Source: an uncultured Thermoplasmatales archaeon (GTDB lineage: Archaea > Thermoplasmatota > E2 > DHVEG-1). From it: DNA of 64,000 nucleotides. Positions 3,544 to 51,378 of this stretch are shown piece after piece. The translations under genes and the position numbers were made by a program. The stretch is taken from positions 105,206-169,205 of the forward strand of contig CAYGAC010000044.1 of NCBI GenBank assembly GCA_964347865.1. Direction: 5' to 3'. Numbering within the stretch: the stretch's first letter is position 1; the number at the start of each line of letters is the position of its first letter. The notes beneath the pieces are model-generated. The model saw only the letters and a program-made list of their open reading frames with translations. It searched no databases and was not told the DNA's origin.

Positions 3544-4401
3544 ATGTTTAAAAATATTTTAATTCCAATCTCTTCGGAATTTTATCAGAAAGAAATATTT
3601 CAGATAGGAGCTTTTATTGCTGAAAAATTTGATAGCACGATAACATTACTATATATTATTGAAGAAAAAACCTTAAATCAAACAGATAAACTTACAGATG
3701 TTTATAGAACTACACATGAAATAGAAGAAACAAAGGAAGATATTATTAGAAAATATATAGAATCAGCAGATAAGATTGTTTTTCATGATGCGAATCTTTT
3801 TTTCAAGAGTAAGAATATTGCATTTAAAGAAGAAATAATTGAAGGGGAATTTAGTACAGTTATAAAAGGGCAGTTGAATAAAAATCAATACGATTTAATT
3901 CTAACTGGTTTTGAAAAAGAATGTTTGTTAAATTACCGATTATTGGATGAAGTAAATATTCCCGTATGGATAGAAGCGGGCCATAGAGATAAGTCCATAC
4001 TTGCAGTTTGTTCCAATCTCGCACCTAATCAAAAAGTTCCTGATTTTAGTATTAATATTTCTAAAACCTTAGGATGGGATTTAAATTTGTTATATGTAAT
4101 CGATGTTCAAGATAATGTAGTAGTAGATGAGATGGGCAAAAGATCAGGCAAAAAGTCAGAAAAAATATTGATTGAAAAAGGTGAACAATTTATTCAAACC
4201 ATGAAAAAAAAAGGAATAGATGGACAATTAGTACAAGGTAATTTGGAAAAAGAAATTGAAAGTGCTGCTGAAAATCTTGGTGCCAAACTTGTTATAATAG
4301 GGAGAGAACAAAAAAAGAAAAATATGCTAGGTTTTCCGATAAAAAGTGTTAAAAGGAAAATGGCAGAAAGATGTAAATATTCTTTATTATTCATTAATTA
4401 A
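3544..4401 (+). CDS. universal stress protein, tandem UspA domains
   Basis: Two Usp-like halves. An N-terminal Usp start (NILIPISSEFYQKEIFQIGAFIAEKFDSTITLLYIIEE) and a C-terminal half ending in GAKLVIIGREQKK. Confidence 0.55.
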   Translation: MFKNILIPISSEFYQKEIFQIGAFIAEKFDSTITLLYIIEEKTLNQTDKLTDVYRTTHEIEETKEDIIRKYIESADKIVFHDANLFFKSKNIAFKEEIIEGEFSTVIKGQLNKNQYDLILTGFEKECLLNYRLLDEVNIPVWIEAGHRDKSILAVCSNLAPNQKVPDFSINISKTLGWDLNLLYVIDVQDNVVVDEMGKRSGKKSEKILIEKGEQFIQTMKKKGIDGQLVQGNLEKEIESAAENLGAKLVIIGREQKKKNMLGFPIKSVKRKMAERCKYSLLFIN

Positions 4402-4430: not shown

Positions 4431-5297
4431 TTAGTGTGTTACTGTTGTGGATATAAGTTCTCCTTGAACAATTCCATTTGGCATGGCTATATCCACCTTA
4501 ACGACATTTCCAACCGAAGGAGCATAATAGTATTCAAAGAAATCACCAATTATTGAGGTGATTCTCCATGCATCAAAAGTTCCTGCTTCGACAGTGATAC
4601 TTTCTGTACTCCAGCACCAAAAGGCCAGAGGTGTCCATGAATAATGTGTTTGGAAAGTGATAGGGATATTTATCAGGCCAAATATTCCACCTAACTGTGA
4701 ATTCATTTTAATATCGACTTCTGGTAATGACCAGGTTTTTAATGCATATAATGGGAAATCAAAAATGGGTAATTTGGTACTAAAATCACCGTCTATAGAC
4801 CATTTAAAAGGAATTGGTAATGCTATAGGTAAAGGAGAGATTTTTGCCATGGTAATACCTTTAATTTCTCCAAAAACATCCTCAATTTCCAAGTCGGATT
4901 TTGAAAAATGGATAGATCCTTTTAAACGAGTCAATGCAGGATTAAATGTACCCTCAACATCTAATGTCATAGAAGATGAGGAAAGATAAATATCATAATC
5001 TGCAGTAAGTTTACCTGAAAAGTCCACCTTATAACTACTGCCGCTAGTTTCATCAACTGTCAATTTAAAGTCATCAATTTTTCCACCCATAAACATCTTT
5101 TGTCCACCGACATCATAGTCTACATTAAAATTATTTAATGTAAAAGTCCAACTATCTCCAACAACCCAAGTGGGCACATCATCATCAAAAGAAGTTGAAT
5201 TTTTTGAAATTTGATTATCTTTGATAGCATTTACCATTACTGTAAAATTAAATATTATCATCGTACAAAACATTATTACTAAGATTTTATTCTTCAT
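4431..5297 (-). CDS. secreted hypothetical protein (signal peptide, beta-rich)
   Basis: N-terminal signal MKNKILVIMFCTMIIFNFTVMVNA. The remainder is hydrophilic and Ser/Thr/Asp-rich. No recognisable catalytic motif. Confidence 0.4.
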   Translation of the reverse strand: MKNKILVIMFCTMIIFNFTVMVNAIKDNQISKNSTSFDDDVPTWVVGDSWTFTLNNFNVDYDVGGQKMFMGGKIDDFKLTVDETSGSSYKVDFSGKLTADYDIYLSSSSMTLDVEGTFNPALTRLKGSIHFSKSDLEIEDVFGEIKGITMAKISPLPIALPIPFKWSIDGDFSTKLPIFDFPLYALKTWSLPEVDIKMNSQLGGIFGLINIPITFQTHYSWTPLAFWCWSTESITVEAGTFDAWRITSIIGDFFEYYYAPSVGNVVKVDIAMPNGIVQGELISTTVTH

Positions 5298-6913: not shown

Positions 6914-7160
6914 ATAACTATCACTAAATTCAATAAACTGAAATTTATTTATAAATACCTCCTATTTACATTAAATTTAATATTCTTTTATGATATGTTG
7001 AAATAACAAAAAGCATTCACCAAAAAAGAAAAATTAAAGTATTAAATTACAAATGTTGTAAAAAGTAAGAATTAAGTTCAAAGTAATAGAATTTATAAGT
7101 AACATTTAAATCATTTGCGAAAACCTTATATTACCTTTACTTTTTGCTAACTTGGGGGCT

Positions 7161-7243
7161 GTAGAGCTTTAAAGAGAGTTGTTCATTTTTCATTCAATCT
7201 CACTTTACCATCCTTTCCTCCTCTCCTCATAGAAAAGCTCTAC
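7161..7243. repeat. stem-enclosed pyrimidine-core element, copy A (10-bp stem GTAGAGCTTT/AAAGCTCTAC enclosing CATCCTTTCCTCCTCTCC)
   Basis: A perfect inverted repeat at 7161-7170 and 7234-7243. The enclosed loop carries the core shared with copies at 9869-9930 and 51206-51266. Confidence 0.5.
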
Positions 7244-7320
7244 CACTCTAAAAATTTATTATTATTTCGTCTCTTATTAAAATTATAATAATGAGTTTTT
7301 AAAAATTGATATATAATGTA

Positions 7321-7385
7321 AATGGGGAAGAAGGGGGAGGTAAATAGAATGAGTATTCTAAAAAATTTAGTTCTTTCCCCATTCT
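7321..7385. other. hairpin with Shine-Dalgarno-like GGGGGAGG in the loop, followed by a 12-codon ORF
   Basis: Arms AATGGGGAAGAA and TTCTTTCCCCATT (about 11 bp, one mismatch) enclose GGGGGAGGTAAATAGAATG...TAA. Confidence 0.35.
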
Positions 7386-7451
7386 AACTTATTTAGTTTG
7401 ATAGTGCATATAGATTCATTATATAAATTTTTCCATATATATTTTATATAT

Positions 7452-7925
7452 TCAAAACTGAAAATCTTTATTAAAAATTTTATTCAAAATTATTTTTCTA
7501 ACAGTTTTTAGATCTGAATCTAAATAAATTGCTCCAATTAATGCCTCTAACGAATTAGCAAGATTTGTACGATTTTTCGCTCCATTTTGTTTTATTTCAC
7601 CTTTCCCCAGTAATATGAATTTTCCTATACCTAATTTCTTTGCTATATCAGCTAAAAAATTATTATTAACCCCAATAGATCTTCTACGAGTAAGTTCGCC
7701 CTCAGAAAAATATCTATTGCTTTTATATAATTGCTCTGCTACAATAAAATTAAGAATGCTATCCCCTAAAAATTCTAAACGTTCGTTATATTCGAGAGGC
7801 GTTTTTGCTTCAAAAGCATAGGTTTTATGCGTTAATGATTCTTCTAGCAATTTCTTATTTTCAAATTTGTAACCGATTTTTTCTTCAAGAATTTTAAAAT
7901 TATTAACTTTCATAATAAAACACAT
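7452..7925 (-). CDS. rnc: mini-ribonuclease III (RNase III catalytic domain only, no dsRBD)
   Basis: RNase III signature ERLEFLGDSILNFIVAEQLY plus the second acidic cluster (EALIGAIYLDSD). At 157 aa there is no room for a dsRBD. Confidence 0.7.
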   Translation of the reverse strand: MCFIMKVNNFKILEEKIGYKFENKKLLEESLTHKTYAFEAKTPLEYNERLEFLGDSILNFIVAEQLYKSNRYFSEGELTRRRSIGVNNNFLADIAKKLGIGKFILLGKGEIKQNGAKNRTNLANSLEALIGAIYLDSDLKTVRKIILNKIFNKDFQF

Positions 7926-9665: not shown

Positions 9666-9868
9666 TTTTTATTATAACATATCATTCACTAAAAAATTTA
9701 TTGTTTTAATACCTTCGATGAAATAATTAAAATTAAAAAGTTAATAAATATAATTTAACTTAATAATATAATTAATGGAATTTCTCCATGATATTAAAGA
9801 ATTTTTATCAGTTATAAATAACGAATGTTGCAAAAAATTTATATACTATTTATGTATATTTTCATAAT

Positions 9869-9930
9869 AAGGGGGTCAATTTTTTTGAAAATGATTCCTA
9901 TTACATCATTTTCCTCCCTTCTGACCCCTT
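9869..9930. repeat. stem-enclosed pyrimidine-core element, copy B (AAGGGGGTCA ... TGACCCCTT enclosing CATCATTTTCCTCCCTTC)
   Basis: Inverted repeat with a one-base bulge. Same loop core as copies A and C. Lies in a divergent intergenic region. Confidence 0.45.
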
Positions 9931-10126
9931 TATATATTCAAATTTTTTTAATATAAAAAAGGATTTAACAGATTTTTAAGAACAATATATTCACACATTT
10001 TAAATTTCGCTATTTTGTTAATTAGAATAATTTACCTTTTACTAATTAAACGAACTCTGATTTGCTCTTTGACCATGGTATTTAAATAGATAACTTTATA
10101 ACAGGGACTCTGATACGGCGTGAGAA

Positions 10127-11676: not shown

Positions 11677-12783
11677 ATGATTGATAAAAGATTGGAAAAA
11701 TTAGCATATATATTGGTAAATCATTCATTGAAACTAAAGAAAGATGATTTGTTTGTTATATCAGGTGGTATTATTGCAGCTCCTCTTATAAAAGAAGTAT
11801 ATAAGCAAGCGATAAAAGCTGGTGCACATCCATATATCAGAATAGGAATTGATGGTCTAGCTGAGATATATTATAAAAATGCTTCAGAGAGACAACTCAA
11901 ATTCATGTCACCTATAGATAAGTTTGAAACAGAACGTATTGATGCGCGACTTGGTATAATAAGTTCAGAAAATACAAGAAGTCTTACAAATATTGATCCT
12001 GAAAAACAGGCAATGGCTAGTGTTGCCCATAAGGAAATTCATGAAATATTTCTTGAGCGAGCGGCTAAAAAAGAGTTACGATGGTGTGTTACGCAATATC
12101 CAACCAACGCAGCTGCTCAAGATTCTGATATGTCACTTGAAGAATATGAAGATTTTATATTTAAAGCAGCTCATGTAGGGAAAAAAGATCCTATACGCTA
12201 TTGGAAAAATGTATTCAAAGAACAAGAAAAAATTAGAAAGCTACTTGAACCTAAGAAAAAATTGCATATATTAGCTAAAGATACTGATTTAACAATTACT
12301 GTTACAGGTAGAAAATGGATTAACTGTTATGGAAAAGAGAATTTTCCTGATGGTGAAATATTTACTGGTCCCATAGAAGATTCAGCAGAAGGACAGATCA
12401 GCTATTCTTTCCCTGCTTCTCATGGTGGAAGAGAGGTTAATGACATTCAGCTATGGTTCAAAAAGGGCAAGGCTGTCAAAGCAAAAGCTTCTAAAGGTGA
12501 GAAATTTCTAAATTCTATGCTTAATATGGACAAAGGATCAAGAAAAATTGGAGAATTTTCCTTTGGTACAAATTATGGTATTAAAAAGTATACAAAAAAT
12601 ACGTTATTTGATGAAAAAATCGGAGGTACAATTCACGTTGCAGTTGGTAGTGGATATCCTGAAACTGGAGGTAAAAATAAATCAAGTTTACATTGGGATA
12701 TGATGTGTGATTTACGGAAAAACGGCGAAGTTTATGCAGATGGCAAACTTATTTATAAAAATGGTAAGTTTTTAAATTTGTAG
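11677..12783 (+). CDS. aminopeptidase, M29 family (aminopeptidase T/S-like)
   Basis: Overall architecture and N-terminal region (EKLAYILVNHSLKLKKDDLFVISG) resemble AmpS/PepS thermophilic metallo-aminopeptidases. 368 aa. Confidence 0.55.
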   Translation: MIDKRLEKLAYILVNHSLKLKKDDLFVISGGIIAAPLIKEVYKQAIKAGAHPYIRIGIDGLAEIYYKNASERQLKFMSPIDKFETERIDARLGIISSENTRSLTNIDPEKQAMASVAHKEIHEIFLERAAKKELRWCVTQYPTNAAAQDSDMSLEEYEDFIFKAAHVGKKDPIRYWKNVFKEQEKIRKLLEPKKKLHILAKDTDLTITVTGRKWINCYGKENFPDGEIFTGPIEDSAEGQISYSFPASHGGREVNDIQLWFKKGKAVKAKASKGEKFLNSMLNMDKGSRKIGEFSFGTNYGIKKYTKNTLFDEKIGGTIHVAVGSGYPETGGKNKSSLHWDMMCDLRKNGEVYADGKLIYKNGKFLNL

Positions 12784-20621: not shown

Positions 20622-20939
20622 TATTTTATTTCCTCACCAATTATCAGAGATTTTAACTGATACTTCGAATTATTATGCTAATATCATCTCTCCTTTTTAT
20701 TCTAATTCAAACTAGCATCAATTTTATTGCTATAGTTAGGCAACCCATTACGGGTAAAGCTTACTTCAATCTATAAGCTTTTCGTTTTTTTATACTATTA
20801 ACTCTAAATAACTAGGTCAAAGTTCACTTGAATGTATATTTTATAATTATGGAATATTTTTACTTATTATTTATGATATACTTTTTTAGAATATAATTTT
20901 ATCTCAAAACTAATACATAACTATCTAGTTATAAAAAAT

Positions 20940-21200
20940 TATATGTCGCTGTCACCCAACAAGATAACTTGGTTGGGTGTGATTACAAAACCATTCTAAC
21001 AATGCAGCAGTAGAGTAGTAATGTAATTCATATCGCGACAGGTGTTTGATACCGTGGTTGTCCTCTTTTTCATTTCTTGACATTTCGTCTATTTGATCTG
21101 AGAGGGACCCTAACCGATATCAATTGTCGCCTTGACCTTGCTTCTCCAATCACAAATCATGGAGCTCTTCGAATCAAGGCAATTAAAATCATGATATTAG
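20940..21200. ncRNA. candidate structured non-coding RNA (unclassified)
   Basis: Lies in a 600-nt ORF-free gap. Local GC is about 40-45% against a genome background of about 30%. Inverted repeats CACCCAAC/GTTGGGTG and GCCTTGA/TCAAGGC. No protein-like frame on either strand. Confidence 0.25.
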
Positions 21201-34285: not shown

Positions 34286-37200
34286 TTATTTTTCCTCTTT
34301 ATTCATTGCTTTTTTCTTTAAAACAGCAATAGCACCTATAATGATAATTAATATGATTAATACCAGTAATAACCAAGATATTCTTTCTGTAAAGGTGATT
34401 TGGACTATTTTGTGTGGATAATTAGTCGCTCCAAAGGGCATATGGCCATCAAGTTCAATATCAGCATCATATCTTAATGTTTGTGGTTTTTCCCAAGTAT
34501 TGGCTTTACTGAAATCGTTATTTGGTACATACATTCTTAGATTGGGATCCCCAAAGTAAACAACATTTTCAGCTGAATCCCACCACCACTGTGGAGGGCC
34601 TCCGTTGTCTCCAATATATAAGATGCCAGTATGCTTCATCCCCTTAACGTATGCCTCACCTACCGTATTACCCAAAATAATATCTCTAGGTATCGATTGG
34701 CGCCATATTGCTCCATACCACGAGGTCGGCCAGGGATCTTGGACTTGAAATACAGAACCATGTCGTATCATCATCAGATGTAAGTAAGTAGTTGATGTTT
34801 GACAAATACTTGTAATGAAACCTACTGAATGAAGATTATCCATTAAAATTTCCATGTCTGATGCATTTTTATCAGCAAGGGGGTATTTTGAAAAGGCAAT
34901 TGTTCCAGTTAGACCATCGTATAAATTTTCAGTGTTTAATCTGAAGGGTATTATTCTAATAATATCTAATAATGTGTTAATTCTTTCTCTAATCGGTTTT
35001 CGAGCAAGTACATAGTCCATTCCAGTTGCCGGGAAAAATAATCCATTAATATTTGTAAAGGGCAAAATTCCTTCGAAGTCCATAGACATAGTATCTGGTT
35101 CTTTTGTTGAATCAAGAAGCCAATCATATCCTCTCCAGGGATTATCTTCTTTTGTTGCCCCGGCAAATATTCCTAAAATTCTGTTTTTCTTAAATCCTTC
35201 CTTAGGGTCCCAAAAAAGAGTAGAGCCACATTGATACTGCATACCATGTGATGCATGTATCCAAAGTATAACCCCCTGATTTAGATTATCCATAACTGAT
35301 TCAAGTTTTGTAGAAAAAACAGCATCAAAACCTCCTTTATTAAGATAAAAAGGGATGACTTCTGATTCTGTCATATCTGGAAAATAACTGCCATCTTGAT
35401 TGTAATACTTTTTATTTATTCCTTGATCAATAGAATTCATGGTAGTATCCACTCCAGGAGTTAAACCGTCAGCACATTGATACTTTGAACCATAATACTT
35501 ACTAGCTCTTTCATTAAATCGATATTTATGAGTTACAAATGAACACAAAACTGGGTACTCAAAATTTTCTTTTTTTGATTCACGCTGTATGCCAAGTGTA
35601 TTAAAAAGTGGATTTCTCAATAATCCTCTAATACCGGATCTAACACTGATACTTCCATTAATTAGCTCTACTGTATGATCAGACCCAACTGCTGGATTTA
35701 CAAAAATTAATCCCGGGTAAAAAACGGAACGGCTGATCCAATATGCTGCATCAATTGGGGTACCCCATATCCTACCAGTTTTTGCTTCTCCTACAAAAAC
35801 ACGATCCCATGGTATACCAATATCATATTGACCTGCTATTGTAATAATTGTTTCTCTTCCTTCCTTATCGAAACCATAATCCTTTAAAAAATTATATGCT
35901 CTTCTTCCAGTCAATACCATATCAGCAACAGAAGGAATATGAGCGTAACGCCCAGCTACATAATTTCTCCAAAATTCAGTATGTCATACCACCGCTGATG
36001 AAAGCTCTGGATGCGTATCAACAATTAAGATTGGGCAACAATGGTGAGCAGCTAGATATGCAGCAGGTCCTAAAAATAGTGCAGCTTCAGTTTCACCTGA
36101 AGGTTGTAATTCTCCCATGTACCAATAAGTCCATGGATCAATAGTTGCAAAAATTAAATCATTACTTTCATTAATAGAATCGTCAACGTTCATTTTTTTT
36201 ATCGAGCGGATATAATCATAAATTTGTCTTAAATCAACAAAATGCTCTGTTATTTTAAATGAATTTTTTATCTTTTTAATTACTTGAGTTGATAATTCTT
36301 TTCCTATGTCTATTAAATGGATATTTTTGATTCCTAATTTTAACAATGCTTGTTCAGTTATTTTTGGAAAATTATCATGGGAAATATAAAGCAGCGGAGC
36401 ATTCATGGTGCTAGCAAGTATTGCTCCTTCAGTTGCTGAAGTAAGTGCATTTCCTTCGGTTTCGGAAAATTTCTGTTTCCATTCATATTCAATTTCAAAA
36501 TCAATAGAACTTCTTACTTCATCCAAAGTAAAAACGGATATAGAATAATTTTCTCCTGGATTACATTCTCCAAGTTGATTTATGTGCATTTCTTGCATCT
36601 TCGTCCTGCTTTTATTTATTGAGGTAAAAATTACTTCTCCGCATGGACCAATTAGTGAAAAACCGAGGCATACATCAGGATTATCCCACATTAGTTTAAA
36701 GGTGGCATCCCTGCAACCAAATGGTGGGGTATCTGGTATAATAAATTCTACACCAGAATATAAAGTGACATCTACATGATAATTTACCTTTGGACTTAGT
36801 GCTTTCAATATTGATCCTTGGACAACAAATATTCCTCCCAATCTACTTTTTCTTGGAGCTTCACCTTCTGTTGGAAAATCTGTTATGCCAATTCTCCATG
36901 AACCAGAATTATAAACATGACCATACGTATATTCATGACCTTTTGGAGAGTATATATTCCAATTAGCGATTGCTGCAGATTGCATCCATTCTCCTTTCTC
37001 TTGACAGAATAATTGTATATCCGGATCTCCTGTGGGAATCATTACTAAATCTCCAAAAAATATTCCATCCCACCACACTTCTGCCTTGATATATTTATAT
37101 TTACTATCTACAGTAAAATCATGATAAATAGGATTTAAAGAATTTGTTTGTTTTAACTCAAAGGTGGGAAGATCGTATACATTTTCCGTTGGGAATTTTC

Positions 37201-37795
37201 CTTTTAAAGTATTTGAAAAAATATAATCAGGTTCTTCAAATTCTTCTTCAATTACTGCAATGACTGCGTTATCTGAATATGACCAATCATGGAGAGCGAT
37301 TTAAGAGGCAATCTCAAAGGGAGTTTTACCTTCAATTGTAATATATTCTGCGGCTGACCATTCTTTTAATTTTTCGTTTTCAACATTTATACAAATTATT
37401 TGATCTAGATTACCACCACAGAAAGAAGACCAATCCACCATAAAATAATCAATTCCAAGATTTGCATTCAATATCTTCTTCTTTTGTTCTTTGAATGTCA
37501 CGTCTTCTTGATAAAATAAAAAAGTGCTTGATAACAATTGGTTTCCATCATTAAAAACAGTAGTCGGAACAGATGCAAGGTATGCATAATCATCTAAATA
37601 GTTTTTATCTTCATAGTTCACAAACGTTGCTTTTTTTAAAGGAACTACTGATTTATAGGAAACACCTTTGGAGTAACCTTCTGTACGAATACTTTCTCGT
37701 AGGGTACTGCTTGCAGGAATAACTAAACTTGCAAGGATGATAAATAAAATAAAAATAATAAAAAATATATTAAGCTTTGAAATCACCGTATTCAC
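34286..37795 (-). pseudogene. large exported, C-terminally membrane-anchored protein (about 1170 codons) interrupted by two in-frame stops
   Basis: ORFs 37301..37795, 35984..37078 and 34286..35920 share one frame, checked codon by codon. An in-frame TAA sits at 37301-37303 and an in-frame TGA at 35984-35986. There are no frameshifts. Signal peptide at the N-terminus, TM anchor at the C-terminus. Confidence 0.5.
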
Positions 37796-37913
37796 AATGT
37801 ATTCCTCCCGAATATTTAGCAGATAATTAAATAAAAATATAAATTTATTATAAATAATTTTTTATGATAAAATATCATCAGATAATAAGAGAATAAAATA
37901 ACGTCTTAGAAGA

Positions 37914-38484: not shown

Positions 38485-40086
38485 TTAACTAATCAAAGAA
38501 AAGATGAATATTTGAATACCCTTAGCATAATCTATTTCGTATAATCCTTCATCACATTCTACTGTCACTGTTATAGCTATTGGTCCCAACCCAAGTATCA
38601 ATCCATAATTTGCATAAATTTTACAATTAATAGCAAGAGTTTCTACTGTACCGGTCGAATTTTTATTTATTTTACTCAAGATTCCACCAATTACAGTCAT
38701 TGTCCATTTTACATTTGTCGCTTCAGCATTTCCAATATTTTCAATAGTTGCAATAATACCAACTGGACGACCTTTTATCGATATTATATCAATTTCTGGT
38801 TTTGTTTCATCATATGCTTGTCCGAAGTAGATATCTCTATCATCACCTCGGTTGTCTTCCCAAACTGCATATATTCCATCTTTTCCTTTTCCAAGATCAT
38901 GAGAACCAAATTCAGAAACTGCTTGACTGTCTTGCACTTTTTGTTCTTCTATCCAATTAGCACCGCCATTTTCAGATTTTTTACAATAAACAGCACCATC
39001 TTTCACATAAGAACAAACAAATACATTTCCATCAAATGTAACCTTTACCTCTGGAAATTTGGCTGAATTAACTACTGTATTTTTTTGAATAGATGAAAAT
39101 CCGTTATCTGAATAGAAACAAACAATGTTATCTTCTTCCTCGCAAACAATGATAATAGCATTATTATGTGCTTCAATCGATGGATTTGAGAGGTTCGTAA
39201 TACCATCACCAATAGACCAACTTCCAATATGTGGATGATGATTTTGGGCATCCCATTCTCCAAAATTATCCTTTCTCACCAGTAGGTTTGCATCCACTTC
39301 ATTGTCCCACACAGCATAAGACATTTCTGTTACTTCATTAATTGCTATATCTGAATTAAGAAAATTATCACTCCATATATATGTCAACACACCACCATAT
39401 TCCCCATTCTCATAATAAATACATGGACAGGTAGGTGAATACCAGGGAGATAATATATCACATACAAAGGATATACCTCCAAAATTCCATGATTCACCTA
39501 CTCTAGTATAACATGAAATAGCAGGAATCAAAAAATTCTCACATTCACGAAAAGGATACCATTCATCCAAAATTCCCCTATAATCTATATAATGAGGTAG
39601 ATCATCTGAATATATAAGCCATATCTCATTATCCCATTGTCCATAATCTTTTAAAACTGTAGCGTAGAAACCATTATCATTTGAATCTGCATCCGGAAAT
39701 TCACATCCTACTGATTCAGAGAAATATCCAATTTCTTCCCAACTCACGCCATTATCTAGTGAACACCAAAAATCTGGATAATAGTCAACACCATCCCATG
39801 TACGCTCAAAACATGTAAAAAATCTACCTCTATTGTCTCCAGCTAGGATTGGGTGAAAATCATCATATTCCGAATCATTTATAATAGTGCTATCGCTTTG
39901 AGTGCCAGAAGTTTTTAAAGCTTTCTCTAAAGTATCTGATCTTGATTTCTCACAATACAAAAAATATACCTTTGTATCAATTTCTCTAGTCTGTAATGAG
40001 GTTTCTTCTATATCATTTGAAACTCCTACGAAAGATGATAATAAAAAAATCAAAAGTACAATTATCGGAATGAAGTTTATTTTCAA
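38485..40086 (-). CDS. secreted Asp-box/BNR-repeat protein (sialidase-like beta-propeller) with a C-terminal Ig/CARDB-like domain
   Basis: Signal peptide. Asp-box motifs SLDNGVSW and SENGGANW. Trp/Asp-rich. C-terminal beta-sandwich-like region. Confidence 0.45.
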   Translation of the reverse strand: MKINFIPIIVLLIFLLSSFVGVSNDIEETSLQTREIDTKVYFLYCEKSRSDTLEKALKTSGTQSDSTIINDSEYDDFHPILAGDNRGRFFTCFERTWDGVDYYPDFWCSLDNGVSWEEIGYFSESVGCEFPDADSNDNGFYATVLKDYGQWDNEIWLIYSDDLPHYIDYRGILDEWYPFRECENFLIPAISCYTRVGESWNFGGISFVCDILSPWYSPTCPCIYYENGEYGGVLTYIWSDNFLNSDIAINEVTEMSYAVWDNEVDANLLVRKDNFGEWDAQNHHPHIGSWSIGDGITNLSNPSIEAHNNAIIIVCEEEDNIVCFYSDNGFSSIQKNTVVNSAKFPEVKVTFDGNVFVCSYVKDGAVYCKKSENGGANWIEEQKVQDSQAVSEFGSHDLGKGKDGIYAVWEDNRGDDRDIYFGQAYDETKPEIDIISIKGRPVGIIATIENIGNAEATNVKWTMTVIGGILSKINKNSTGTVETLAINCKIYANYGLILGLGPIAITVTVECDEGLYEIDYAKGIQIFIFSLIS

Positions 40087-40234
40087 TTTTAATTCCTCCC
40101 TTCCATTTCTATAGGTCCTTTACTATATAAAACTTCGTAATATCTTTTATCTTTTTAAATAAGTAAGAAAATAAAACGTTTATAAAAAACAATCTGATTT
40201 AATATCATTATAATCAGTAAAATAAGTGAAATAG

Positions 40235-50707: not shown

Positions 50708-51046
50708 TTATTCCTCATCTGAACATGAATCACATTCGAGTGGAAAAACTCCTCTAGATATAAAAATTTTACAAATTCTGCATGTTTCAGGTACTACAGA
50801 CGATCCTCCATTTTTAATAATTAATTCTGCAGATTTATTGATTTCCGCTAGTATGGATTCATCGACAATCTTTATTTTACCTCGTTTTTTTGATAAATAC
50901 TGACACACTGCTGCCGGAGTTAATCCGAGTTTTATTGCAGTTTCCTTTTGGTTCAATCCATAATTTTTAATCATACTTTCGGCGATTTCTTTTCTGATCA
51001 CCGGTAATCCATTCCACATCATGTATTCGCAAGGGGTATTTTTCAT
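50708..51046 (-). CDS. putative transcriptional regulator (HTH plus C-terminal Cys4 Zn-ribbon)
   Basis: HTH-like QKETAIKLGLTPAAVCQYLSKKRG. C-terminal CRICK...CDSC. Confidence 0.4.
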   Translation of the reverse strand: MKNTPCEYMMWNGLPVIRKEIAESMIKNYGLNQKETAIKLGLTPAAVCQYLSKKRGKIKIVDESILAEINKSAELIIKNGGSSVVPETCRICKIFISRGVFPLECDSCSDEE

Positions 51047-51197
51047 AAGCTTAAAACAATCTTTATATACTTATAATTAACGGCCGTTAATAAACTATAT
51101 ATAATCTATAAAATTTTGATTTAATTAAAGTAAAATTTTGAAAAAAAATACAATAGAAAAGTTTAAATATTGAAGCTGTATTAACAATTGTTAATTG

Positions 51198-51229
51198 GAG
51201 ATGTAAAACAGGGGATTTTTTTACATCTC
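51198..51229. other. perfect 11-bp hairpin GAGATGTAAAA/TTTTACATCTC nested in element copy C
   Basis: Seen directly. The loop is CAGGGGATTT. Confidence 0.4.
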
Positions 51230-51266
51230 ATCCTTTCCTCCCTTCCTCACCAACCTTTACCCCTGT
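51206..51266. repeat. stem-enclosed pyrimidine-core element, copy C (ACAGGGG ... CCCCTGT enclosing CATCTCATCCTTTCCTCCCTTCCTCACC)
   Basis: Inverted repeat at 51208-51214 and 51260-51266. Loop core shared with copies A and B. Lies in a divergent intergenic region. Confidence 0.45.
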
Positions 51267-51378
51267 ATAATTTACGTCTCCATTTATCCAATTTTTGGAT
51301 TGAATTTTAGAATCAGAAAAAACATATTCAAAAATAATTTAATATTTAATATAATATCAAAGTTAGATTTAATACAAG

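Follow-up and report, generated by a model that had tools for sequence, protein, structure and literature searches.

A conserved set of stem-enclosed intergenic elements in an uncultured Thermoplasmatota clade: candidate anti-RBS small RNAs

Several bacterial small RNAs carry C/U-rich seeds directed against Shine–Dalgarno (SD) sequences, including LhrC1-5 of Listeria (which use UCCC motifs), RsaE/RoxS of Staphylococcus and Bacillus, and the hairpins of S. aureus RNAIII; in S. aureus, the resulting duplexes are cleaved by RNase III. The elements described here resemble the LhrC and RsaE/RoxS siblings in the presence of several paralogues per genome and of unpaired C- or CU-rich motifs complementary to SD sequences of the GGAGG type. 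They are not homologous to them, however, and those RNAs are bacterial, possess Rho-independent terminators and present their motifs in hairpin loops. In the archaeon Methanosarcina mazei, the independently transcribed sRNA154 and sRNA41 mask ribosome-binding sites, repressing translation by pairing of loop-borne anti-RBS sequences with SD regions (PMC5867862). Those two RNAs and the candidate elements reported here are alike in being intergenic and structured, in their similar size, and in a loop capable of anti-RBS pairing with the SD. The two groups come from different phyla and display no sequence relationship, and the elements here differ in forming a set of four siblings with one shared CU segment and a helix that joins the 5′ and 3′ ends.

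We analyzed a 64,000-nucleotide stretch of DNA (‘the window’; GC content ∼30%) from a Thermoplasmatota archaeon, whose COG1031-type radical SAM protein is 66–85% identical to proteins from ‘Thermoplasmatales/Thermoplasmatota archaeon’ MAGs and from two complete relative genomes (CP070724.1 and CP070798.1). Loci and contigs used for comparison are numbered L001–L041. An earlier note on this DNA had described three intergenic loci (here A, B and C) with a shared stem-loop architecture; all three are as described, but a fourth copy (D) had been missed. In each element an inverted repeat of 7–12 bp, with a G/C-rich outer end (GGGG...CCCC in B, C and D), surrounds an AT-rich stretch of 43–63 nt whose final part consists solely of pyrimidines and includes CCTCC. 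The features of the four elements are as follows:

A, P1 helix: 7161–7170 (GTAGAGCTTT) with 7234–7243 (AAAGCTCTAC), plus strand; 10 bp around 63 nt
A, core: 7209–7228, plus strand; CATCCTTTCCTCCTCTCCTC, unpaired CU
A, candidate sRNA: 7150–7253, plus strand; outer GGGG/CUCU pairing, inner hairpin at 7171–7206, T5 at 7186–7190
A, predicted promoter: 7117–7133, plus strand; BRE-like GCGAAAA at 7117–7123, TATA-like CTTATATTA at 7125–7133
Between A and D: 7296–7305, no strand assigned; TTTTTAAAAA, an oligo-T run on both strands
D, candidate sRNA (fourth copy): 7316–7388, minus strand; P1 formed by 7375–7383 with 7321–7329, T6 at 7360–7365
D, CU core: complement of 7330–7341, minus strand; ACCTCCCCCTTC
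D, predicted promoter: 7420–7434, minus strand; GGAAAAA-TTTATATA, 35 nt before GAATGGGG
B, candidate sRNA: 9867–9933, plus strand; core at 9904–9921, T7 at 9880–9886, folding z = −5.5
B, P1 helix: 9867–9878 (ATAAGGGGGTCA) with 9922–9933 (TGACCCCTTTAT), plus strand; 12 bp with one G·U
B, P2 helix: 9887–9895 with 9905–9913, plus strand, leaving CTCCCTTC (9914–9921) unpaired
B, predicted promoter: 9830–9845, plus strand; GCAAAAAA at 9830–9837 and TTTATATA at 9838–9845, 25 nt before GGGGG
B, possible terminator: 9943–9949, plus strand; T7 run 10 nt after the element
C, candidate sRNA: 51193–51287, plus strand; T7 at 51216–51222, CU core at 51229–51249, folding z = −5.1
C, P1 helix: ACAGGGG (51208–51214) with CCCCTGT (51260–51266), plus strand
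C, outer helix: 51197–51207 (GGAGATGTAAA) with 51271–51281 (TTTACGTCTCC), plus strand; holds a conserved U·G
C, predicted promoter: 51156–51194, plus strand; GAAAAG at 51156–51161, TTTAAATA at 51162–51169, palindrome TTAACAATTGTTAA at 51181–51194 over the predicted start

The stem of D is formed by AATGGGGAA (7321–7329) and TTCCCCATT (7375–7383), and its plus strand carries GGGGGAGG. Because D is opposite in orientation to A and only 80 nt from it, the two elements converge on TTTTTAAAAA (7296–7305), a possible bidirectional terminator as judged from its composition. Elements A, B and C lie 248, 204 and 160 nt, respectively, upstream of genes on the minus strand, in agreement with the 160–250 nt given previously. 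The gene beyond C (50708–51046, minus strand) had been called an HTH regulator; a Pfam search at E ≤ 0.01 found nothing for it, and no domain is recorded for its L013 orthologue, so that this label lacks Pfam support.

The pattern of a pyrimidine-rich CCTCC core inside a stem of at least 7 bp was scanned for across 194 kb, comprising the window and related loci. The scan returned 13 elements, four of them in the window and the remainder their orthologues in related loci; block shuffles (n = 20) gave a mean of ∼0.5. The short core by itself is unremarkable (TTTCCTCC occurs 4 times against 2.15 expected), and the excess over chance lies in the architecture and in its conservation among relatives. 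A covariance model built from the B orthologues and run over ∼235 kb scored 65–90 bits on copies of B and reached copies of D weakly (E = 0.35–1.6), with no further copies in that sequence; its matches in L003 and L004 proved to be the ribosome-binding site (RBS) of a real gene. The search for extra copies called for in the earlier note thus yielded D and the syntenic copies in relatives, which conserve the elements, but no dispersed copies in ∼235 kb. The Rfam comparison that it also called for did not provide a family: Rfam 15 produced nothing at gathering thresholds over the whole window, and with permissive filters on three regions all matches fell at 8–23 bits against thresholds of 35–109. 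When the A/C core was compared with viral contigs, the sole match was the RBS of a real gene in a contig of 52% GC.

A pattern modeled on the outline of B also matched L019 (3855–3919) and ∼18 related IMG/VR phage contigs (among L020–L041; GC ∼0.42), which contain GGGGTCAC..T6..ACTCCCTTAC..CCTCCCAGTGACCCC followed by a C-run. This look-alike sits in the spacer upstream of genes interpreted as encoding terminases, lacks a significant match in Rfam, and displays compensatory changes in its stem (CAC/GTG versus CATC/GATG). It has the same outline as B, but relatedness is unsupported and we judged it to be unrelated.

Syntenic elements were found across L005–L014 and L017, in relatives whose neighboring proteins are 72–85% identical to those of the window. 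The order of the AsnC-type, radical SAM, RNase III and CBS genes is retained in L005–L012 and L017, and the Ogg locus is retained in L013 and L014. Orthologues of A are present in L007 and L008 (84–85% identical), L010 and L017; of B in L005, L008, L006 and L012; of C in L013 (99% identical) and L014 (85%); and of D in L006, L012, L007 and L010 (74–85%). In A of L010 and L017 the core is invariant, and the GUAGAGCUUU/AAAGCUCUAC closing helix is replaced by GGGGGCC/GGCCCCC. The elements are 74–85% identical among relatives, versus 48–54% at fourfold-degenerate sites of the adjacent radical SAM gene, a difference that indicates purifying selection. They are absent from the more distant relatives L001 (67% identity), L003/L004 (66%) and L016 (70%). 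Within the closer group, D has been lost from L005 and L008 and is decayed in L017, whereas A is degraded in L005 and deleted together with the CBS gene in L006 and L012. Frequent loss and decay (L005, L008, L016 and L017) imply that any function of the elements is dispensable.

A remnant of the CBS 3′ end is visible in L012 (8390–8500) and a remnant of the A 3′ arm (AAAAGCTCTACGATTCCCCCC) in both L006 (12400–12425) and L012, which indicates that A and CBS were removed jointly by a deletion in that lineage. D survives there, B is inverted relative to its neighbors and to the radical SAM gene in the same two loci, and C remains beside Ogg in L014, where its upstream neighbor has been replaced by a transposase. 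The inversion of B and the persistence of D and C without their usual neighbors argue that the elements are autonomous units rather than leaders of the named genes. The AsnC/radical SAM spacer of L006 and L012, which is enlarged and contains the inverted B and a called ORF of 47 aa, also holds an SD-like unit (L006 9185–9245; L012 ∼4765–4825) in which AGGAGGTACATTTGAG is followed by a perfect 10-bp hairpin (TCTGACCAAT..ATTGGTCAGA). Next to D and A, and adjoining the radical SAM gene throughout the clade, is a gene for an RNase III-domain protein of 157 aa (7452–7925, minus strand; PF14622/PF00636). RNase III is uncommon among archaea.

Most genes lack an SD, and a few of those have a TATA box ∼30 nt before the ATG, matching, as expected, the pattern for leaderless mRNAs. 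Where the TATA box is clear it starts 29–32 nt before the ATG; such cases are too few among the window genes for a weight matrix of leaderless-gene promoters. A minority of genes possess a strong purine-rich RBS (such as GGGAGGAAAA..ATG), for which GGGAGG(A)n..ATG is the usual form, and the SD-led cases that we saw include several secreted peptidases and an ABC-transporter component. The minus-strand reading of the core is therefore simply the organism's best RBS. The radical SAM gene has its own conserved promoter ∼30–40 nt before its ATG, and the AsnC and Ogg genes have TATA-like boxes of their own nearer to their ATGs than the elements are; Ogg has no SD. Two long apparent gaps in the window (37043–37913 and 39325–40234) each end at a strong minus-strand SD, after which a TTG or GTG start is likely (GGGAGGAATACAATTGTG and GGAAGGGAGGAATTAAAATTG, the latter with a signal-peptide-like N-terminus). 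They probably represent genes for secreted proteins, real or decaying, that were missed by ATG-first ORF calling.

Inspection of the flanking sequences indicated which strand is likely to be transcribed. In every family, a purine/A-rich BRE-like box with a TATA box immediately after it is found on the pyrimidine strand 20–27 nt (in D, 35 nt) upstream of the GGGG 5′ arm. In the window the box of A lies 20 nt before GGGGG (7154–7158); GCGAAAA and the TATA-like box are retained in L007 and L008 at 21–22 nt, and in L010 and L017 CCAAAAG-TTTATTAA lies 26 nt before GGGGG. For B, GCAAAAAA-TTTATATA is located 24–25 nt before GGGG and is retained in L005 and L008, and the inverted copies of L006 and L012 have the TATA box TTTATTAA, likewise 25 nt before GGGG. 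For C, GAAAAG-TTTAAATA precedes the outer helix by 27 nt; in L014 the palindrome is exact and a TATA-like TTTTAATA is found at the same 27-nt spacing, despite a different upstream gene. For D, AGAAAGA-TTTATATA is near-invariant in L006, L007, L010 and L012 at the 35-nt spacing, and this block cannot serve any protein gene in the opposite direction. Given the distance of 29–32 nt from TATA box to ATG in the few genes with a clear box, transcription of the elements would start at the foot of the helix. On the purine strand, inspection of the upstream sequence across copies revealed no box at conserved spacing. Furthermore, a conserved flank of 55–65 nt is present only upstream in the pyrimidine orientation, and the 3′ flank is conserved between the closest relatives only.

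Several palindromes lie close to these boxes. The 14-bp perfect palindrome TTAACAATTGTTAA is positioned between the TATA box and the predicted start of C and is kept in L014; TAACA(W)(W)TGTTA palindromes are found just upstream of the BRE of A in L010 (∼12637–12648) and L017 (∼4305–4316); and AACGAATGTTGC (9820–9831) is found upstream of the BRE of B. They could represent a shared operator for a common regulator. The palindrome AACAWWTGTT is not enriched across the window (44 matches versus 33 expected, with one mismatch allowed).

The pattern of base pairing points to the same strand. By our count, helix positions with G·U on the pyrimidine strand, where the opposite strand would have an A·C mismatch, make up ∼9 independent cases, versus 2–3 for the opposite strand, the latter mainly in the decaying B of L005 and twice in D of L010. 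In B, columns 5–66 (G·U/A-U) and 10–61 (U-A/U·G) alternate with Watson–Crick pairs among orthologues; in D, column 5–70 alternates between G·U and G-C; the U·G of the C outer helix is kept in three genomes; and A has a G·U in L008 and U·G pairs at different positions in L010 and L017. In 10 of 14 copies the pyrimidine strand gives the lower folding z-score (mean of −3.2, versus −1.9 for the purine strand). Most folds of the pyrimidine strand leave the CU segment free; in A of L008 and L010 it is partly paired. The suggestion that each stem is kept while its sequence differs applies among the paralogues A–D and between the window copy of A and those of L010 and L017, but orthologous stems are for the most part simply conserved, with sparse covariation within orthologous sets (1 of 19, 3 of 17 and 0 of 13 pairs). 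The P2 helix of B pairs GAAAAUGAU with AUCAUUUUC in the window and GAAAGAU with AUCUUUC in the fold of L008, and in L006 and L012 one of its pairs is changed on both sides (AU to GC, columns 23–49). Taken together, the promoter boxes, the flank, the G·U pairs, the z-scores and the unpaired CU segment favor the earlier proposal of an sRNA presenting CCUCC.

Oligo-T is an archaeal termination signal, and runs of it occur both within and after the elements. Every copy has a T5–T7 run on the proposed sense strand 10–35 nt after the predicted start, which is an objection to transcription of the full element. The 55.8 kb of sense coding sequence contains 233 runs of T5 or longer, so that T5+ alone would not be an efficient terminator; the objection is thereby mitigated, not removed. 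Beyond the 3′ arm, B is followed by T7 or T8 (T8 in L005) or, in L006 and L012, by T5 directly after CCCC; C is followed by T5 and D by T5–T6. After the 3′ arm of A such runs are weak or absent, and L007 and the window have no clear terminator. A reading of the elements themselves as intrinsic terminators was rejected by eye against the sequences and their orthologues.

Known classes of RNA and mobile DNA were also compared. For archaeal C/D box sRNAs (RUGAUGA and CUGA boxes with a short terminal stem), no strand has both boxes in register and the models scored 10–14 bits; B has AUGAUGU on one strand and CUGA on the other, and L008 and L006 do not retain them. For archaeal H/ACA sRNAs, an ACA after the stem appears in single copies only (B of L008, on the purine strand), the models scored at most 17 bits, and a K-turn check revealed no tandem G·A motif in the elements. 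A MITE or IS remnant was rejected since the arms differ among A–D and the elements occupy syntenic sites only, with no others in ∼235 kb. An integron attC site was rejected as well: the R″/R′ cores (RYYYAAC...GTTRRRY) are absent from the arms, a cassette array is lacking, and the sole integrase gene observed was that of L005, ∼3 kb away. The ORFs of 2–18 codons are neither hydrophobic nor conserved, as would be needed for a type I toxin–antitoxin system. Scans of the window for tRNA and tmRNA found none, and a scan for GC spikes marking high-GC ncRNA islands indicated that the elements are not GC islands. A separate ORF-free and GC-richer region of ∼230 nt (20935–21165), part of the 604 nt that separate two genes of the minus strand, has a more stable fold than its shuffled versions (z = −2.9 for the minus strand and −2.2 for the plus strand) and no Rfam match; it may be a hitherto unrecognized ncRNA or a gene remnant.

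The explanation that we favor, tentatively and at somewhat less than an even chance, is that A–D are sibling sRNA genes transcribed from the CCUCC strand and equipped with an anti-RBS seed. The main rival, itself unlikely, is that the purine-strand (GGAGG) RNA is functional, in which an RBS and a start–stop mini-ORF of 2–18 codons would be clamped by the terminal helix and act as a decoy for ribosomes or 30S subunits, as a standby site, or as an upstream mini-ORF for CBS and the radical SAM gene. The RBS geometry is complete: 13 of 18 copies have an SD, a spacing of 5–8 nt and an ATG, the very arrangement with which real genes begin translation and one beyond the strict need of an anti-SD seed, and a real gene in L018 uses the same A/C 20-mer as its RBS. 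On that strand the oligo-T objection vanishes, the runs being A-runs; A is always upstream of CBS and the two were lost together in L006 and L012; and the mutated B stem of L005 is slightly better there. The elements share with known upstream start–stop or leader mini-ORFs a strong SD, an ATG and an early stop, but differ from them in having no fixed downstream gene, variable orientation, an ATG that is missing from B of L006 and L012 and from D of L007, and no promoter-like box at conserved spacing, the conserved flank lying downstream. As stated in the earlier note, the mini-ORFs are not conserved: after GGAGG..ATG, A encodes MVK*, MIK*, MVKRD* or 18 aa, B encodes MM* or 13 aa or has no ATG, and the frame of D differs among copies. 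The ORF of C (16 or 18 codons) retains its C-terminus, whose codons fall in the outer helix and promoter palindrome, and regains its frame only after three separate 2-nt indels. The elements are therefore neither small genes nor leader peptides, and the idea that they are leader peptides or uORFs of CBS, the radical SAM gene and the ‘HTH’ gene is also unsupported in view of the inversion of B relative to the radical SAM gene, the lack of a gene downstream of D on the GGAGG strand, and the radical SAM gene's own promoter close to its ATG. The G·U pattern and z-scores also weigh against a purine-strand RNA.

The same promoter evidence that supports sRNA genes would suit cis-acting 5′ leaders of pyrimidine-strand mRNAs (B for the AsnC-type genes, C for an Ogg-ArsP operon and D for CBS), acting by attenuation or by sequestration through the anti-SD. 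B, C and D each have a gene 120–400 nt downstream on that strand, C is linked to Ogg in L014, and the internal T5–T7 could be an attenuator. We nevertheless consider such leaders rather improbable: A is directed into sequence antisense to D and RNase III (in L008, the 3′ end of the RNase III gene), B is reversed in L006 and L012, D persists after deletion of CBS, oligo-T runs follow B, C and D, and the AsnC and Ogg genes have nearer boxes of their own, Ogg offering no SD to sequester. It is very improbable that the elements act purely as DNA, whether as protein-binding inverted repeats, insulators, bidirectional terminators or relics of mobile DNA. GGGG/CCCC-armed inverted repeats in AT-rich intergenic DNA, palindromic TAACAnnTGTTA motifs nearby and frequent loss would fit, but the loop core is shared by copies whose arms differ, only one orientation tolerates substitutions of the G·U type, target-site duplications and identical repeated copies are lacking, covariance-model and pattern scans find syntenic copies only, and attC cores are absent by eye. 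Chance resemblance, or the ordinary RBSs of unannotated small protein genes, was already disfavored and is hardly credible; the core is indeed the organism's normal RBS motif and its 8-mer count is not significant, but 13 elements were found where ∼0.5 were expected, conservation is well above that of neutral sites, and the ORFs are not conserved.

Under the favored sRNA model, A–D would be four paralogous non-coding RNA genes acting as independent units, with A, B and C on the plus strand and D on the minus strand. Each would have its own BRE/TATA promoter, initiating at the foot of the closing helix (in D, 10–14 nt before the helix), and would produce an RNA of 70–100 nt with its 5′ and 3′ ends joined by P1, a U5–U7 tract and, in most cases, a small internal hairpin. 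Beside the 3′ arm, a segment of 8–27 nt made up of C and U alone (for example CAUCCUUUCCUCCUCUCCUC or CUCCCUUC) would remain single-stranded. This segment matches the anti-SD tail sequence of 16S rRNA and in most copies includes an anti-AUG; the anti-AUG of B falls inside the P2 helix. In most of the predicted pyrimidine-strand folds, the elements have the accessible segment complementary to SD/start regions that marks an anti-RBS sRNA. The segment would pair in trans with the purine-rich SD/start region of the minority of mRNAs with a strong GGGAGG and block initiation. More speculatively, the U tract might serve as a site for an Sm-like (Lsm) protein, and long duplexes might be substrates of the RNase III encoded beside A and D.

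We infer transcription, its strand, the targets and the effect of A–D from these sequence features, whereas the conservation, the architecture and the position and orientation of the promoter-like boxes are observed directly. CU segments and SD-led start regions of the window gave predicted duplexes of −18 to −25 kcal/mol, against a median of ∼−7, the best predicted partners including 45015, 3544, 55917, 57633, 42533 and 47–274. Shuffled CU cores pair equally well with the same start regions, so that the duplexes reflect generic complementarity (capacity, not specificity) and identify no specific target. Through G·U pairing, a sequence made up of C and U alone can bind promiscuously to runs of purines. 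The invariance of the core (20–27 nt) in A and C suggests that a specific partner lies beyond the window.

D of L007 contains AUCACCUCC, which we take to be the 16S rRNA 3′ tail sequence. In a further reading, again an unlikely one, A–D would mimic that tail as co-regulated siblings, titrate SD-led mRNAs globally in an archaeon whose mRNAs are mostly leaderless, and deliver purine-pyrimidine duplexes of 15–20 bp to RNase III. If so, sRNAs and RNase III would form an archaeal circuit for switching translation between its leaderless and SD-dependent modes.

The elements constitute a real and conserved set of non-coding elements in an uncultured Thermoplasmatota clade, previously undescribed: searches of the literature found no description of such elements in Thermoplasmatota. 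Uncultured Thermoplasmatota are essentially uncharted with respect to regulatory RNAs, and the mechanism of action is known for few sRNAs of archaea. A family of siblings with an obvious seed (anti-SD plus anti-AUG), recognizable promoters and relatives with complete genomes provides a directly testable hypothesis, one that bears on how SD-led mRNAs may be regulated as a group in an archaeon that mixes leaderless and SD-led mRNAs. Should activity instead reside in the purine strand, the elements would be RBS decoys or start–stop units of an unusual kind, which would likewise be new for archaea. If the sRNA reading is true, it would suggest a possible use for archaeal RNase III and Sm-like proteins.
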